Shown here piece after piece: positions 1 to 4,928 of a DNA stretch of 64,000 bases. The stretch is from contig CAYWJT010000001.1 of assembly GCA_964458655.1 (NCBI GenBank), positions 4,145 to 68,144 of the forward strand, read 5' to 3'. A program made the translations under genes and the position numbers. The stretch comes from an uncultured Eubacteriales bacterium. GTDB taxonomy: Bacteria > Acidobacteriota > Aminicenantia > Aminicenantales > Saccharicenantaceae. The notes beneath the pieces were generated by a model. The model searched no databases. It was not told the origin of the DNA and saw nothing but the letters and a program-made list of their open reading frames with translations. Numbering within the stretch: the first letter of the stretch is position 1; every line of letters starts with the position of its first letter.

Positions 1-63
1 GTCGGCGATGACGAGGCCGACCGCATGCTGGACTATCCGCACCGGAAACCGTGGGATGTTTAA
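1..63 (+). CDS. 3' end of an upstream gene that runs off the window start; product unknown
   Basis: Open frame from position 1 that ends in TAA at 61-63 (...DYPHRKPWDV*). It is too short to assign a family. Confidence 0.3.
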   Translation, partial: VGDDEADRMLDYPHRKPWDV

Positions 64-68
64 AATAT

Positions 69-144
69 GGGGACAGTTTACTCGTTAACCAATTTTGATT
101 TAGCTGCCGGAAATAGGGTAAATGAGTAAACTGTCCCCTTTTTT
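69..144. repeat. Inverted pair of a 22-bp motif (copy D 69-90, copy E 117-138) with a 26-bp spacer and a T6 run at 139-144; terminator-like hairpin
   Basis: Read directly: ggggacagtttactcgttaacc, then 26 nt, then ggtaaatgagtaaactgtcccc, then tttttt. The arms are reverse complements of each other at 20 of 22 positions. Confidence 0.6.
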
Positions 145-157
145 GGGGAGGCGCGGG

Positions 158-1081
158 ATGGCTCGGACAGGGCGACGGGATTTCCTGAAGGGGACGGCGG
201 GCCTAGCTGCCGGGGCGCTGGCCGCGCAGGCGCTGGGCTTGAGCGCCTCGGACGGCCAGGATGCGAGGACGGTCTCCGGCAATGAGCCGAACGGAGCACC
301 AGGCCCCGGGACTGAAGCGGGCCTTGGGACGGCTGAAAAGAACGAGAACCGGCCCCGCTTCGCCCTCGGCCTCGCCTCCTACACCTTCCGGGCCTTCAGC
401 CTGGAGCAGACGATAGCCATGACCAGACGTCTCGGCCTGGAAGCGGTCGTGCTCAAGAGCTTCCATCTTCCGCTGGACAGCCGGCGGGAGGAGATAAGGG
501 CGGCCGCGGCCGCGGTCAGGGCCGCCGGGCTCGACCTTTACGGCTGCGGGGTCGTCTACATGACCACGGAAGCCGAGGTCGAGCAGGCCTTCGAATACGC
601 TTCCGCCGCCGCGATGAGGATGGTCATCTGCTCGCCGGCGGCCCGACTCCTGAGCCTGGTCGAGCGGAAGGTCAGGCAGACTAACATCCGGGCGGCCATC
701 CACAACCACGGCCCTGAAGATAAGATCTATCCGACGCCTGAGAGCGCCTACGAACGGATCCGGGGGCTTGACCGGCGGATGGGCCTCTGCCTTGACATCG
801 GTCACGCGGCGCGAGCCGGCGTCGACCCGGCCGAAGCGGCTCGCCGCTTCTTCGACCGCCTTTTCGACGTCCACATCAAGGACGTCTCCTCCGCGGCCCG
901 GGAGGGTCAAACGGTCGAGGTGGGCAGGGGAGTCATCGATATCCCGCGTTTCGTCCGGGAGCTGGTGAAGCTGGGCTACGCCGAGACGCTGGCCTTCGAG
1001 TACGAAAAGGACGAAAAGGACCCATTGCCCGGTCTGGCCGAGTCGGTGGGCTATGTCCGCGGCGTCCTCGCGGCTCTTTAA
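158..1081 (+). CDS. Sugar phosphate isomerase/epimerase (xylose-isomerase-like TIM barrel) with a Tat signal peptide
   Basis: GGAGG lies 7 nt before the ATG at 158. The N-terminus is MARTGRRDFLKGTAGLAAGALAAQALG, which has a twin-arginine motif. Body motifs are typical of the AP-endonuclease-2/xylose-isomerase TIM family. The ORF-track start at 122 falls inside repeat copy E and lacks an RBS. Confidence 0.75.
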   Translation: MARTGRRDFLKGTAGLAAGALAAQALGLSASDGQDARTVSGNEPNGAPGPGTEAGLGTAEKNENRPRFALGLASYTFRAFSLEQTIAMTRRLGLEAVVLKSFHLPLDSRREEIRAAAAAVRAAGLDLYGCGVVYMTTEAEVEQAFEYASAAAMRMVICSPAARLLSLVERKVRQTNIRAAIHNHGPEDKIYPTPESAYERIRGLDRRMGLCLDIGHAARAGVDPAEAARRFFDRLFDVHIKDVSSAAREGQTVEVGRGVIDIPRFVRELVKLGYAETLAFEYEKDEKDPLPGLAESVGYVRGVLAAL

Positions 1082-1126
1082 AAAGGGAACGGTTTACCCG
1101 TTCACCTGTTTTTCGGCCCGGACGCT
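1081..1126. repeat. Diverged copy A of the 22-bp motif plus a 24-bp extension that it shares with copy B
   Basis: gggaacggtttacccgttcacctgtttttcggcccggacgct matches copy B over about 46 bp, with 5 mismatches. Confidence 0.55.
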
Positions 1127-1234
1127 TCGACGGACATAAAGAAAGTCGAAGGAGACGACCGGGGCGAGGGCCGTCAGCCCGACTGAAACGCGCTGGAACC
1201 GGCTGACGAAGTCGCCGTCAGTCGCGTTGCTCAT
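1094..1234 (-). CDS. Possible 46-aa small protein with a hydrophobic core; its last codons are encoded by repeat copy A
   Basis: GGAGG lies 8 nt upstream of the ATG at 1234. The translation is MSNATDGDFVSRFQRVSVGLTALAPVVSFDFLYVRRSVRAEKQVNG. It ends SVRAEK..., the same residues that end ArsM, which are encoded by copy B. Confidence 0.25.
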   Translation of the reverse strand: MSNATDGDFVSRFQRVSVGLTALAPVVSFDFLYVRRSVRAEKQVNG

Positions 1235-1262
1235 GGCCGTCGCCTCCCGATATGGGAACGGT

Positions 1263-3410: not shown

Positions 3411-3442
3411 CGGCTCTCCTCCGAGCTTATCACAGATCAAAT

Positions 3443-3490
3443 AAAAAGGGGACAGTTTACTCGTTCACCTATTTTTCGGCCCGGACGCTG
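3443..3490. repeat. Copy B of the 22-bp motif plus the shared extension; it overlaps the last 7 codons and stop of arsM
   Basis: aaaaaggggacagtttactcgttcacctatttttcggcccggacgct; the ArsM C-terminus SVRAEK* is encoded within it. Confidence 0.6.
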
Positions 3491-4302
3491 ATGCTCAGCA
3501 CGGAAGACATGCTCTCCATCAGCTTATCCAACGGGATGCCCAGCCTGGCGCTTATCTCGCGGGCCTGCGCGTCTTCTAGGAGCAGTTCGGCGGGGTAGCC
3601 TTTTTCGCTGAGCACTTCTATGCGCGAGAAACCGGCGGCTTCGATGGCTCCCAAATAATCCTCGCGGACCATGGCGCCGGCGACGCAGGCCACGTAGGCG
3701 TCGAGCGAGCCGCTGACCTCTGCCGGGAGGGGCTTCGTGAGGACGAGGTCGGAGACCAGCAGCCTGCCGCCGGGCCGGAGGACGCGGAAGGCTTCGCGGA
3801 AGACCCGCGGCTTGTCCGTGGAAAGGTTGATGACGCAGTTCGAGATGATGACGTCCACGCCGGCGTCGGCGACCGGCAGGTTCTCGATCTCGCCCAGCCG
3901 GAATTCGACGTTGTCATAGCCTCCCTTGGCGGCGTTGGCCCTGGCCCTGTCTATCATCTCGGGCGTCATGTCGACGCCGATCGCCCGGCCTTCCGGCCCG
4001 ACCCTGCGGGCGGCCAGGAAGCAGTCGATGCCGGCGCCCGAGCCGAGGTCCAGCACGACCTCGCCCCGCTTCAGGCCCGCGAGCGCCGTGGGATTGCCGC
4101 AGCCCAGGCCCAGGTTGGCTTCTACAGGGATGGCCTTGAGCTCGTCCTCGGAATAGCCTACAGCGAGCCCGACGCCCATTTCCGCGTCGTTCCGCGAACC
4201 GCAGCACGGATTTGACTGGGGGCAGCACGACTGCCCGGTTTTAGCCGCTCCGGCGTAGCGCCCGCGGACCGTCCTCTTGATGTCCTCGTCCTTGACGACC
4301 AT
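3469..4302 (-). CDS. arsM: Arsenite S-adenosylmethionine methyltransferase
   Basis: [13 protein letters not shown] is the SAM-binding motif. There is an N-terminal Cys-rich segment ([12 protein letters not shown]) and Cys residues in NCVINLS and YVACVAG, as expected for As(III) binding. AGGAGG RBS is present. Confidence 0.75.
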
Positions 4303-4317
4303 GTCTAACCTCCTTAT

Positions 4318-4590
4318 TCAGACCAGGCCCTTGATCATGGGGCCGAGCTTGTCCCTGATGATGCCCCTGAGTTCGTCGGTCTTGATGAGCGTCAGACAGC
4401 AGGACCTGTCCGCGCCCCGCCACATGATGACCGCCAGCTTGTCCCCGGGCTTGAGCCCGGCGGCCTCGCGGACCTCCTTGGGGATGACCATCTGGCCGCG
4501 CTCGTCGACGCTGACGATGGATTCGATCGCGCAGCAGGGCAGGCCCTGCCCGGCGCTTTCTTTCTTCTTGACGACCGGTTTGTCGTTCAT
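4318..4590 (-). CDS. AbrB/MazE/SpoVT-family DNA-binding protein carrying two vicinal cysteine pairs
   Basis: Starts MNDKPVVKKK at 4590 with a GGAG RBS. The core is VDERGQMVIPKEVREAAGLKPGDKLAV, a swapped-hairpin AbrB-type fold. It also has LPCCAIE and RSCCLTL. The gap to arsM is 15 bp. Confidence 0.7.
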   Translation of the reverse strand: MNDKPVVKKKESAGQGLPCCAIESIVSVDERGQMVIPKEVREAAGLKPGDKLAVIMWRGADRSCCLTLIKTDELRGIIRDKLGPMIKGLV

Positions 4591-4792
4591 GCGTCTTCTC
4601 CTAAAAGTAGGAAATATCAGAACAATCAGAATGATATCAAGCTGGCCGGGCGCTGTCAAGAACAGGCAAGCGGGTTACCCATTAAACATATTACGTCGCC
4701 GGCGGAACTCGGAGCCGGGTGGAACGACGAGTTCCGCCTTTTCTATGCTTTCCCCCTTTAAAGCAAGGTCGCGCGGCCGGCCCCGCCCTCGA

Positions 4793-4822
4793 GAAAAATA
4801 GGTGAATGAGTAAACTGTCCCC
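4793..4822. repeat. Copy C of the 22-bp motif
   Basis: Positions 4801-4822 read ggtgaatgagtaaactgtcccc, 106 bp upstream of acpS. Confidence 0.6.
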
Positions 4823-4928
4823 ATATTTGACCGGGAGGGGGCGGTTTCTATAAAATGGGGGGATGATGCCGGCGCGAAGAGACGGTCGAAACAGGGCGGG
4901 GCGGGCCCGCGGAAAGGTGTGAAAGGCT

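Follow-up and report, generated by a model that had tools for sequence, protein, structure and literature searches.

A 34-bp extragenic repeat in Aminicenantes, probably of the REP/REPIN type and associated with a RAYT-like transposase gene

The left end of the window (the whole 64-kb stretch of DNA that was analysed) carries the end of a GFO/IDH/MocA gene, a TIM-barrel gene, a sulfatase-TPR gene, a MazE-ArsM operon and acpS, and five copies of a 22-mer lie between these genes or at their ends (Table 1). An earlier reading made from the letters alone (hereafter the sequence-only reading) had placed five copies here, and a pattern search allowing up to three mismatches found all five at those positions, where chance predicts none (0.00 expected from 100 shuffles). 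Copies D, B and C match the 22-mer perfectly, copy E has one mismatch and copy A has three. A profile built from 53 copies detected no further significant copy in the remaining 59 kb of the window, in agreement with the earlier statement that the 22-mer occurs nowhere else in it. The same public contig has a sixth copy directly after the stop codon of MntP, ~3.3 kb to the left of where the window begins.

The left flank of copy D is A-rich and includes the TAA stop of the GFO/IDH/MocA gene, and its right flank is T-rich. The CCCC end of copy E is followed by T6, a Shine-Dalgarno sequence and then the ATG of the TIM-barrel gene at 158. The TAG stop of ArsM falls inside the T-rich flank of copy B, and a promoter-like sequence for acpS (TTGACC-N18-TAAAAT) lies 4 nt from the CCCC end of copy C. 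Copies E, B and C do lie upstream of start codons in a common orientation, as previously proposed, at distances of 19 nt from the TIM-barrel gene, 37 nt from the sulfatase-TPR gene and ~106 nt from acpS, respectively.

Table 1. Repeat copies and associated features in the window
Feature	Coordinates	Strand	Description
Copy D	63..97	+	22-mer 69-90; 5' arm of the D/E doublet
Copy E	106..145	-	22-mer 117-138; 3' arm of the D/E doublet
D/E doublet	63..145	.	REPIN-like; two inverted units, 26-nt spacer, A-tract and T-tract flanks
Copy A	1079..1126	+	22-mer 1085-1106 plus 20 nt copied from the arsM 3' end
Lineage-specific 2.3-kb insertion	1127..3441	-	bounded by both copies of a 48-bp duplication
Partial copy A' GGGAACGGTT	1254..1263	+	overlaps the TGA stop of the sulfatase-TPR gene
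Copy B	3442..3489	+	22-mer 3448-3469 plus the arsM 3' end
Copy C	4793..4828	-	22-mer 4801-4822; singlet in the window genome

Copies A and B have 48 nt in common at 92% identity, including the SVRAEK codons, so that the extended similarity noticed from the letters is genuine. Between them lies an insertion containing the sulfatase-TPR gene and most of a 46-aa ORF. L034 and L039, two syntenic relatives, have an empty site here, and their convergent TIM and ArsM genes are separated by a single motif. Copy B goes back to this one ancestral copy at the TIM-ArsM junction. Copy A is the only local duplicate of the set, and forms the left-hand member of a target duplication of 48 bp. The insertion itself is the context that explains copy A, and is not a member of the repeat family. 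We conclude that its mechanism is not specific to the motif, since two other insertions in the window are likewise flanked by duplications that lack the motif, and since the A/B duplication reaches 20 nt past the unit into arsM. Owing to its three mismatches, copy A forms a hairpin with a perfect 6-bp stem (GAACGG-TTTAC-CCGTTC) and a T-run after it. Copy A and partial copy A' have the same variants at positions 4 and 7, and in L040/L041 no copy other than A' separates the sulfatase gene from the TIM gene.

The exact 22-mer was found in 27 metagenome contigs, with GC contents of 39 to 70%; these and 4 genome contigs (31 in total) yielded ~60 copies in unrelated gene contexts. Alignment of the copies showed that conservation runs into the flanks outside the search pattern. 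The conserved unit is ~34 nt long and consists of an A-tract, the 22-mer and a T-tract (aAAAww-GGGGACAGTTTACTCRTTyACC-TAtTTTt); A/T-rich flanks are likewise present in the 4 genome contigs. Named homologs of the proteins encoded beside copies are from Aminicenantes, and the adjoining genes are ordinary, with no function in common. Real copies are all intergenic or overlap stop codons only; the sole copy inside a gene, in L003, is probably a chance match. Gene ends adjoin the GGGG end, with a TAA stop often 0-7 nt away: a co-oriented stop codon lies within 10 nt of the GGGG end in 19 of 61 copies, and TAA is the stop in 17 of these 19 genes, as compared to 7 of 40 window genes. Other copies overlap convergent stops, and distances to promoters or start codons vary from 4 to >300 nt. 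As a general rule of the family, the closest gene boundary, be it a stop or a start, lies on the GGGG side of the unit; the common orientation of E, B and C follows from this rule, and is not evidence for an operator. Copies are clustered, with five in 4.8 kb of the window and none in the other 59 kb, and eight in 5.7 kb of L034 and none in 15 kb; ~17 other intergenic regions of the window are without the element. Several contigs end at the motif, and partial tandem duplications of either arm are seen among the copies.

In L034 and L039, copies occupy the same intergenic sites as in the window, with 22-mers almost unchanged and spacers diverged. Orthologous sites are occupied in relatives for D, E, the TIM-ArsM copy, C and the MntP copy (orthologues of copy D are present in L027, L034 and L039), and copy-specific variants are kept among the orthologous copies of the window, L027, L030, L034 and L039. 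Between the window and L034, orthologous copies differ at only 2 of 110 positions, as against ~25-30% of third codon positions in the neighbouring genes; over the comparisons of the window with L034 and L039, this value is 24-30%. We conclude that the local copies are old and vertically inherited, since they occupy orthologous sites and retain copy-specific variants despite this divergence. The RAREFAN preprint describes REPIN-RAYT systems in the same terms, as vertically inherited and long-lived. The proposal of the sequence-only reading, a locally spreading repeat family and not a single site, is therefore correct as to the family; local spread is contradicted by the orthologous copies in relatives and by the dispersal of the family over many unrelated loci and over lineages of 39 to 70% GC, and applies only to copy A relative to copy B. 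Both the TIM-ArsM copy and the MntP copy of L039 are perfectly conserved at orthologous sites, which fits selection on the singlet better than it fits a decaying remnant. The partner of the MntP copy has been cut down to AAAATAGGTG in the window's lineage and is intact in L030 and L034. Copy C corresponds in L034 to the right half of a doublet with a start-to-start distance of 127 nt, and it is exactly at copy C that DNA identity between the window and L034 shifts from 77-87% to 94%. Three lineages have their genes in identical order and orientation, unshuffled, and adh_short is missing in L039. The compared loci yielded no clean case of a unit or doublet having been inserted or excised.

Across the family, units occur as singlets or as inverted pairs with the GGGG ends outward, and singlets are as common as pairs. 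Convergent pairs number more than 12, as against a single divergent pair; start-to-start distances are 19 to 571 nt, and the spacers (0-550 nt) are unrelated. Folding z-scores of the inverted pairs range from -5 to -13, and the L024 pair is a perfect 41-nt palindrome. The D/E hairpin begins 5 nt past the TAA stop at 61-63, is followed by T6, and folds with -37.6 kcal/mol as RNA (z -5.2) and -20 kcal/mol as DNA (z -5.5). In relatives, the length and sequence of the D/E spacer have changed and the arms are intact. Because a strong hairpin and U-tract sit directly past a stop codon, D/E has the form of a bidirectional intrinsic terminator, and the fold and U6 bear out the terminator-like stem-loop previously suspected past the stop at 63. 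Other tight doublets show the same form, a stable hairpin and U-tract 3' of a gene. The L021 pairs and the C pair of L034 lie between divergent genes, and are unable to terminate since no upstream gene is present there. Singlets B and C have folding z-scores of about 0 and lack the intrinsic-terminator form. The consensus 35-mer folds as single-stranded DNA (-5.3 kcal/mol, z -4.8) via the flanks plus GG/CC; real singlets in their context fold no better than shuffles. The only dyad of the unit is formed by its flanks (10/11 match) around a 12-nt asymmetric centre, and the most conserved bases are in this 12-nt loop. The D/E spacer also contains a promoter-like TTGATT-N18-TAAATG, read from sequence only.

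One contig, L013, encodes a 224-aa protein between inverted units, one of which overlaps its stop codon; the other, inverted, lies ~163 nt upstream of its ATG. The protein has an HUH motif (NHVHLI), a tyrosine in RYVELNPV and a 60-aa C-terminal tail. It matches Pfam Y1_Tnp above the cutoff (E 2.6e-12), its best NCBIfam match is REP_Tyr_transpos (E 1.9e-17; 63.5 bits, below the equivalog cutoff of 80), and its only PDB match is E. coli TnpA-REP (4ER8; E 5.7e-4). The same layout, with an intact and conserved gene between the units, is found at the same tRNA-adjacent locus in L013, L049/L050 and L051, which represent three samples; L049 is from the same assembly as L034, the syntenic relative with a motif cluster. 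These loci are orthologous, and hence count as one evolutionary instance. Presence at the same locus in three samples fits a transposase gene that is single-copy and vertically inherited. We estimate the chance of finding a coincidental Y1 gene among ~100 sampled genes at roughly a few percent, and an ordinary operon between two copies also exists (MazE-ArsM, between B and C). Abundant repeats flanking the gene are considered diagnostic of RAYTs (PMC5581495). The sequence-only reading had left three options for the motif, namely a terminator, a promoter-proximal operator and a miniature mobile sequence; a RAYT-like Y1 gene between inverted copies in relatives makes the last of these the best supported.

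We consider it likely that the 22-mer is the core of a ~34-bp extragenic REP/REPIN-type repeat of Aminicenantes that is paired with a RAYT-like (IS200-type, HUH/Y1) transposase gene. The Y1 transposase would recognise the unit or doublet as folded single-stranded DNA, and would have spread the element by insertion beside A-rich sites, which in a 65% GC genome would mostly be TAA stops and promoters. The host may then have co-opted A/T-flanked doublets as terminators or insulators between transcription units; judging by their form, doublets such as D/E probably serve as bidirectional terminators. Singlets B and C would be half-elements, either ancestral or left after loss of a partner. The kind of element is ordinary, and what appears new is the host phylum: a literature search found no earlier description of such an element in this phylum, and we know of none.

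The closest known systems are the REPIN-RAYT systems of Pseudomonas fluorescens SBW25 and E. coli, which likewise consist of short extragenic repeats present as singlets and as hairpin-forming inverted doublets, with a Y1/HUH gene flanked by inverted copies (here one conserved locus, examined in three samples). Bertels and Rainey (PMC3337134) described REPIN spacers as variable and non-conserved, derived long palindromes from REPIN excision, and took A/T runs at doublet ends as a sign of terminator co-option; spacers variable in length and sequence, long perfect palindromes and A-runs and T-runs at doublet ends are all seen here. Long-term vertical persistence is a further likeness (PMC3337134, PMC5581495). 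There are several differences, some of which count against our reading. The unit is AT-rich in a GC-rich genome, without the GC-rich palindromic core of classical REPs, and its dyad is made by the flanks, which enclose an asymmetric centre of 12 nt that is strongly conserved. The GTAG tetranucleotide found 5' of the hairpin in REPs of the E. coli type is also absent from the consensus unit; GTAG is a trait of some RAYT groups, but not all. The same 22-mer persists across GC contents from 39 to 70%, the singlets look selected and not decaying, the copies are clustered, and no movement was seen. Furthermore, the transposase, with its C-terminal tail, falls short of the NCBIfam equivalog cutoff, its link to the repeat comes from one conserved locus while ordinary operons also lie between copies, and Aminicenantes/Acidobacteriota are outside the groups of characterised systems.

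Other families share fewer traits. E. coli REP/BIME sequences are extragenic units of ~35 nt at gene 3' ends or between convergent genes, found alone or as inverted pairs. Their known effects are on mRNA 3' ends and on termination, and they influence upstream genes if located ~15 nt or less from the stop. However, the spacers of the present family are unrelated, in contrast to BIME linkers with their few conserved types, and REP itself is a stable GC-rich hairpin, unlike the unit described here. IS200/IS605 elements and their miniature derivatives encode a transposase of the same superfamily (Pfam Y1_Tnp) and similarly lack target duplication. The constant A-rich left flank would follow if insertion occurs, as for IS200/IS605, beside a short specific sequence. 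Nevertheless, IS ends are two different subterminal hairpins and not inverted copies of one sequence, and an IS is multi-copy and mobile as a whole, unlike the gene described here, which keeps a single conserved position in three samples. Neisseria DNA uptake sequences and Correia elements are conserved across related lineages, with terminator-like singlets and inverted pairs downstream of genes. Uptake sequences are 10-12 bp long and occur about once per kb, which is not so here; the interior of Correia elements is conserved over 100-150 bp and they bear a TA duplication, features that are not seen here.

An alternative that we judge unlikely is a host boundary element, in which a lineage-conserved DNA- or RNA-binding protein would mark transcription-unit borders at a 22-34-bp site (as a roadblock terminator, insulator or topoisomerase site) and proximity to the Y1 gene would be coincidental. 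Perfectly conserved singlets with copy-specific variants suggest purifying selection on single units that form no hairpin, the GGGG end faces gene boundaries with the excess of TAA stops described above, and the tandem duplications of either arm suggest modular half-sites; read from the consensus, the arms are 10/13 identical as inverted repeats around an 8-bp asymmetric centre. However, we found no candidate binding protein, the intergenic regions of the window without the element argue against a general boundary signal, and this alternative leaves unexplained why a REP-type transposase lies between inverted copies in three samples. The boundary element is also compatible with our preferred reading, since a co-opted REP would look identical. 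Site-specific recombination sites bounding exchangeable gene cassettes, like integron attC or lox, are very unlikely, even though a 13-8-13 structure, with imperfect inverted arms and an asymmetric core, can be made out in the unit, the copies cluster in a variable region and adjoin genes subject to presence or absence (the sulfatase between A and B; adh_short), and identity to L034 shifts exactly at copy C. Constant gene order and orientation in three lineages argue against cassettes, as do an A/B duplication 20 nt longer than the unit and two other window duplications free of the motif. No integrase was found in the window or near clusters, the consensus has no RYYYAAC/GTTRRRY core, orientations are mixed and singlets occur, and many pairs, with spacers of 0-26 nt, are too close to recombine.

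That E, B and C share an orientation and precede start codons could suggest a regulon operator for a transcription factor or a promoter element, as could several copies 4-9 nt upstream of good sigma-70-like promoters; conservation across lineages of very different GC is also a property of DNA uptake sequences. These readings are highly improbable. About one third of copies lie 0-10 nt past a co-oriented stop and further copies run over convergent stops, the spacing to promoters and starts differs widely, neighbours have no common function, and the whole 22-mer is conserved rather than two blocks. For an uptake sequence, the density is far too low, with empty stretches of 59 kb in the window and 15 kb in L034, and copies are absent from genes save for the probable chance match. 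Pairs with GGGG ends outward also resemble the terminal inverted repeats of a classical MITE, a deletion derivative of a DDE transposon, and AT-rich flanks and contigs ending at the motif would suit one. We regard a MITE as extremely unlikely, given that the flanks show a target-site duplication at no pair, interiors of 0 to 550 nt are unrelated, singlets and pairs are equally common, the copies are old and occupy orthologous sites, and the only transposase between copies is Y1/HUH and not DDE. The confinement of all five copies to the first 4.8 kb, with A and B truly a local duplicate, recalls a local duplication artefact or purely local spread within a 5-kb region. This is almost certainly wrong: the artefact is refuted by the exact 22-mer in 27 other metagenome contigs and in the 4 genome contigs with A/T-rich flanks, and by copies at orthologous sites in L034 and L039.

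The REP/REPIN-RAYT reading may also be taken a step further, although we hold this extension to be rather unlikely. The 34-bp unit may be a domesticated boundary element that has gone beyond a selfish REP and is selected as a single site. A conserved factor, the RAYT-like protein or a different one, would read it and thereby stop or insulate transcription with no hairpin involved, and the unit may supply identical 34-bp anchors for gene exchange between diverged genomes. What suggests this is the perfect conservation of singlets at orthologous sites and the occurrence of the unit in lineages with GC contents of 39 to 70%.

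A search of the window with GGGGACAGTTTACTCRTTMACC, allowing up to three mismatches, returned exactly the five copies that a sequence-only reading had listed (copies A to E in the table below), and none in shuffled sequence. That reading had also placed the 22-mer nowhere else in the window, and scanning the remaining 59 kb with a profile of 53 non-redundant copies indeed gave no further copy. Copies D and E had been described as a hairpin pair, and this description held: the pair starts 5 nt past the TAA stop codon at 61-63, its arms are 26 nt apart, and six T residues follow. 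It folds with -37.6 kcal/mol as RNA (z -5.2) and -20 kcal/mol as DNA. An alignment of all collected copies revealed that the conserved unit exceeds the 22-mer, with an A-rich run of ~6 nt before the GGGG end and a T-rich run of ~7 nt after the ACC end; these flanks were absent from every search pattern used. We detected no Rfam match at the motif in the window or at 16 other loci. The window gave only a cobalamin riboswitch, and the other loci only a tRNA, in a contig that encodes a transposase (L013). The distribution of copies is patchy, with five in 4.8 kb and none in 59 kb of the window, eight in 5.7 kb and none in 15 kb of a syntenic relative (L034), and five in 6.2 kb of another contig (L020).

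Features of the window, with coordinates
Feature	Position	Strand	Comment
Copy D	69-90
Copy E	117-138	-
Copy A	1085-1106
46-aa ORF	1094-1234	-	Shine-Dalgarno, hydrophobic middle
Insertion, 2.3 kb	1127-3441		48-bp direct duplication; absent in L034 and L039
Copy B	3448-3469
MazE/AbrB-type (SpoVT-AbrB fold) protein, 90 aa	4318-4590	-	Two Cys-Cys pairs; directly upstream of arsM
Near-consensus promoter, TTGACA-N17-TATCAT	4659-4631		Near MazE/AbrB-type gene
GC-rich hairpin, GGCGGAACTCG...CGAGTTCCGCC, then TTTTCT	4700-4745	+	Divergent MazE/acpS intergenic region
Copy C	4801-4822	-
Insertion, TPR/BNR gene	8626-11013		Duplicates 8118-8260 ~ 10791-10933; lineage-specific relative to L034
Insertion, two low-GC3 DUF5128 beta-propeller genes	14903-17662		Duplicates 14831-14914 ~ 17662-17745; lineage-specific relative to L034
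Cobalamin riboswitch	44482-44660	-	Rfam RF00174, 85 bits; upstream of TonB-dependent receptor gene 42428-44425

Every real copy is intergenic. The GGGG end points to the closest gene boundary: 19 of 61 copies have the end of a co-oriented gene no more than 10 nt away from it, with TAA as the stop codon in 17 of these 19, as compared to 7 of 40 window genes overall. Where the GGGG end is not at a stop, a divergent start or promoter lies 4-40 nt away. ORFs entering from the ACC side terminate within the unit, since all three frames of that strand, the minus strand, hold stop codons (TAGgTGAaTGAgTAA); these stops are expected of an AT-rich sequence, and we do not regard them as a sign of function. 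Copies occur as singlets or as pairs with the GGGG ends outward, and more than 12 pairs are convergent, as against a single divergent pair. The start-to-start distance within pairs ranges from 19 nt to 571 nt, with unrelated spacer sequences; the 571-nt pair, on contig L022, encloses no convincing ORF or known RNA, and the pair on contig L024 forms a perfect palindrome, which folds as DNA with -31 kcal/mol (z -13). The neighbouring genes are unrelated and ordinary, encoding a POT transporter, a DsbD-like protein, HypA, TldD, EF-P, TatA and a nitroreductase.

The sequence-only reading had proposed a repeat that spreads locally. We found instead a dispersed family: the exact 22-mer is present in 27 metagenome contigs with GC contents from 39% to 70%, and in five contigs of a species-representative genome set, four of which have the same A/T-rich flanks. 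Contigs of low-GC and mid-GC lineages with the identical 22-mer include L011, L028, L007 and L012. Viral contigs gave no match to the motif, and partial matches to known plasmid or phage elements were at chance level only. Homologues of the TIM-barrel and sulfatase proteins of the window, and of one protein encoded on a contig with 42% GC, are named Candidatus Aminicenantes, Aminicenantales or Saccharicenans; hence, we conclude that the repeat family belongs to the Aminicenantes lineage. Some other Aminicenantes contigs have no copy within 7-20 kb. Four motif-bearing MAG contigs (L001, L002, L004 and L005) are labelled Clostridiales or Eubacteriales. One of them, L005, has genes for FadL/porin-like outer-membrane proteins and for an M28 peptidase resembling that of the window, so the four MAGs may have been mislabelled and may belong to Aminicenantes. 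In a Candidatus Saccharicenans contig with 53% GC (L036, 17283-17316), a gene stop is directly followed by a diverged form of the unit, AAAACGGGGGACACCATACTCGTTCCCCAATTTTTTT, whose ends make a perfect GGGGA/TCCCC stem, suggesting that sister repeat families may exist.

The public contig containing the window (L006) reaches 4 kb further left, where a sixth copy lies directly past the MntP stop. The gene order MntP-(adh_short)-nitroreductase-GFO-TIM-ArsM-MazE-acpS is common to the window, L034 and a second syntenic relative, L039. The TIM-barrel proteins of these relatives are 81-85% identical to that of the window over the aligned part, and third codon positions of their TIM and ArsM genes are 70-76% identical to those of the window. 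Both relatives carry copies at the sites occupied in the window, namely past the MntP stop, as a D/E pair between GFO and TIM, between the convergent TIM and ArsM genes, and upstream of acpS (copy C). The five copies that the window and L034 have at orthologous sites show 2 differences in 110 positions, and each lineage retains the copy-specific variants, namely the CCCC end of the MntP copy and the G at position 16 of copy D and of the TIM-ArsM copy. These local copies are old: near-identity at orthologous sites and the retention of copy-specific variants argue for vertical inheritance with constraint, as opposed to recent local spread or homogenisation among copies.

Among lineages, the D/E spacer is 26, 35 or 57 nt long and differs in sequence, with the arms intact. 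Pair or singlet status also varies: copy C is a pair in L034, and the MntP copy has a partner that is whole in L034 and in contig L030 and cut down to AAAATAGGTG in the lineage of the window. A clean empty-site comparison for target duplication was not obtained, the flanks being unalignable at polymorphic sites. We considered compensatory change in doublets, since in four lineages the G16/A16 asymmetry of D/E yields a sense-strand G-U pair. This, however, represents one ancestral state; the MntP pair is biased in the opposite direction, and hence doublets give no consistent RNA-level signal. Left of copy C, in the stretch between MntP and MazE, the window shares 77-87% DNA identity with L034; from acpS on, the value is 94%, the switch falling at 4822. 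This jump at copy C indicates that the history of the motif-rich segment differs from that of its neighbour, and places a putative recombination breakpoint at or beside the repeat.

The sulfatase-TPR gene and the 46-aa ORF are missing in L034 and L039, and the TIM gene and ArsM converge on one copy, into which the ArsM ORF runs (..AEKQVNE*, ..AEKLVNE*). The duplication bounding the corresponding insertion in the window spans the TIM stop codon, the motif and the last 20 nt of arsM. Copies A and B thus have 48 nt in common, the 22-mer included, and this target duplication accounts both for the further 24 bp originally noted and for the SVRAEK residues at the end of the 46-aa ORF. Since the last 10 codons of that ORF are copied from the arsM 3' end and the repeat, we conclude that it is a chimeric insertion product. 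The TPR/BNR and DUF5128 insertions are each bounded by a direct duplicate of the 3' end of the upstream gene, without the motif; hence, the insertion-with-duplication mechanism is not tied to the motif. Together with the sulfatase insertion, they make three of one style within 18 kb, which suggests a common mechanism, possibly single-crossover integration of circular DNA carrying short homology. A close relative whose sulfatase is 95% identical to that of the window (L040/L041) is without copy A and the small ORF, its sole remnant being a partial copy, GGGAACGGTT, over the sulfatase stop, which in the window is at 1254-1263. The three deviations of copy A from the consensus each strengthen one stem, giving a perfect GAACGG-TTTAC-CCGTTC hairpin followed by a T-run; we estimate the probability of three random changes giving this hairpin at ~2e-4. 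Copy A was shaped either by selection for a terminator or by templated quasi-palindrome correction.

By screening small genes adjoining copies, we identified a transposase, the one exception among the otherwise ordinary neighbours. A 224-aa protein encoded by L013 matches Pfam Y1_Tnp (IS200-like transposase) above the cutoff (E 2.6e-12). Its best NCBIfam match is "REP-associated tyrosine transposase" (RAYT; E 1.9e-17), whose score of 63.5 bits is below the equivalog cutoff of 80, and its single match among solved structures is E. coli TnpA-REP (4ER8). The protein has an HUH motif (NHVHLI) and a tyrosine in RYVELNPV. Its gene lies within a convergent pair, with one unit over the stop codon and an inverted unit ~163 nt 5' of the ATG, adjoining a tRNA gene. 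The 90% identity cluster of the protein has eight members, and the two further ones retrieved (L049/L050 and L051) have the same locus, the same arrangement and an intact ORF, so that a RAYT-like gene is conserved between inverted units. L049 and L034 come from one assembly. The published criterion for a RAYT is that the extragenic space on either side of its gene holds abundant repeats (PMC5581495). REPINs, as described by Bertels and Rainey, are inverted doublets with variable, non-conserved spacers and with ends of A-runs and T-runs, interpreted as terminator co-option; their excision leaves long palindromes, and singlets are doublet remnants (PMC3337134). The family described here resembles REPINs in its doublets, variable spacers, A/T-run ends, long palindromes and singlets. 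In contrast to REP units, its unit is barely palindromic and lacks GTAG, and its singlets seem selected rather than decaying.

We consider the motif to be, probably, the REP-type unit of an Aminicenantes REPIN-RAYT system. The transposase would mobilise units or doublets as folded single-stranded DNA, insertion beside A-rich sites would explain why, in a genome of 65% GC, units come immediately after TAA stops, and doublets such as D/E would act as bidirectional terminators. The weak points of the REPIN-RAYT reading are that the transposase association concerns one conserved locus, that the unit departs from REP units in symmetry and in GTAG, that copies are clustered and that singlets look selected. 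Ordinary operons also fall between two copies, as MazE-ArsM does between B and C, and no movement of a unit or doublet was observed among the loci compared. For these reasons, we retain as the main rival, or as a complement, a host function of the single unit as a boundary element read by a protein, which we nevertheless regard as unlikely.

Six further readings were considered, namely cassette recombination, a DDE-MITE, an operator, a promoter, an uptake sequence and a local artefact, and one or more of the features tested contradict each of them. The motif contains a possible -10 element (TAAACT), but a conserved -35 is missing, a fitting one occurring at one copy only, upstream of adh_short in L034; in about one third of copies, such a promoter would drive antisense transcription into the upstream gene at its 3' end. 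A lox-like 13-8-13 structure with cassette exchange is weakened by the two motif-free insertions with the same type of flanking duplication. A coding reading was rejected as well: positions 16 and 19 vary like third codon sites in one frame, but conservation is lacking in the flanks, the unit directly adjoins stop codons, and further stops arise in some variants.

Sequence strings of the motif occurred in none of the papers searched, and a keyword search for Aminicenantes repeats returned nothing relevant. The kind of element is known; as far as this literature shows, this family, its phylum and its unusual unit are undescribed. To our knowledge, REPIN-RAYT systems have been characterised almost only in gamma-proteobacteria, and a clear case in uncultured Aminicenantes would take this host-element partnership beyond the range known so far. 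It would also offer an unusual test case, with an AT-rich and barely palindromic unit whose 22-nt core is identical at GC contents of 39 to 70%; this constancy across very different genome compositions, singlets included, is an unexpected property. The motif marks borders of transcription units and could be used as a lineage marker. It is also an annotation hazard, creating short false ORFs and C-termini extended into the repeat, such as the ArsM tail ..AEKQVNE in relatives and the chimeric 46-aa ORF of the window. Metagenome contigs L012, L015, L016, L035 and L050 have a copy within 2-40 nt of an end, and the repeat appears to be the cause of such assembly breaks in these genomes.

Beside the repeats, the pairing of MazE with arsM is kept in L034, L039 and L040, and the 90-aa MazE/AbrB-type protein, from an unusual family, is a candidate for a regulator that responds to arsenite. 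The hairpin at 4700-4745 has no gene upstream on the + strand to terminate, and may be a small RNA or attenuator. A second short palindromic repeat family, GGTACCWGGTACC, often forms a hairpin pair (L029 692-720, 1579-1591 and 4105-4117; L026 1349-1392). It is present in related contigs, at times 20-60 nt from the 22-mer, with no copy in the window; in L029, two copies of the 22-mer have ~95 nt in common, the GGTACCWGGTACC repeat included.
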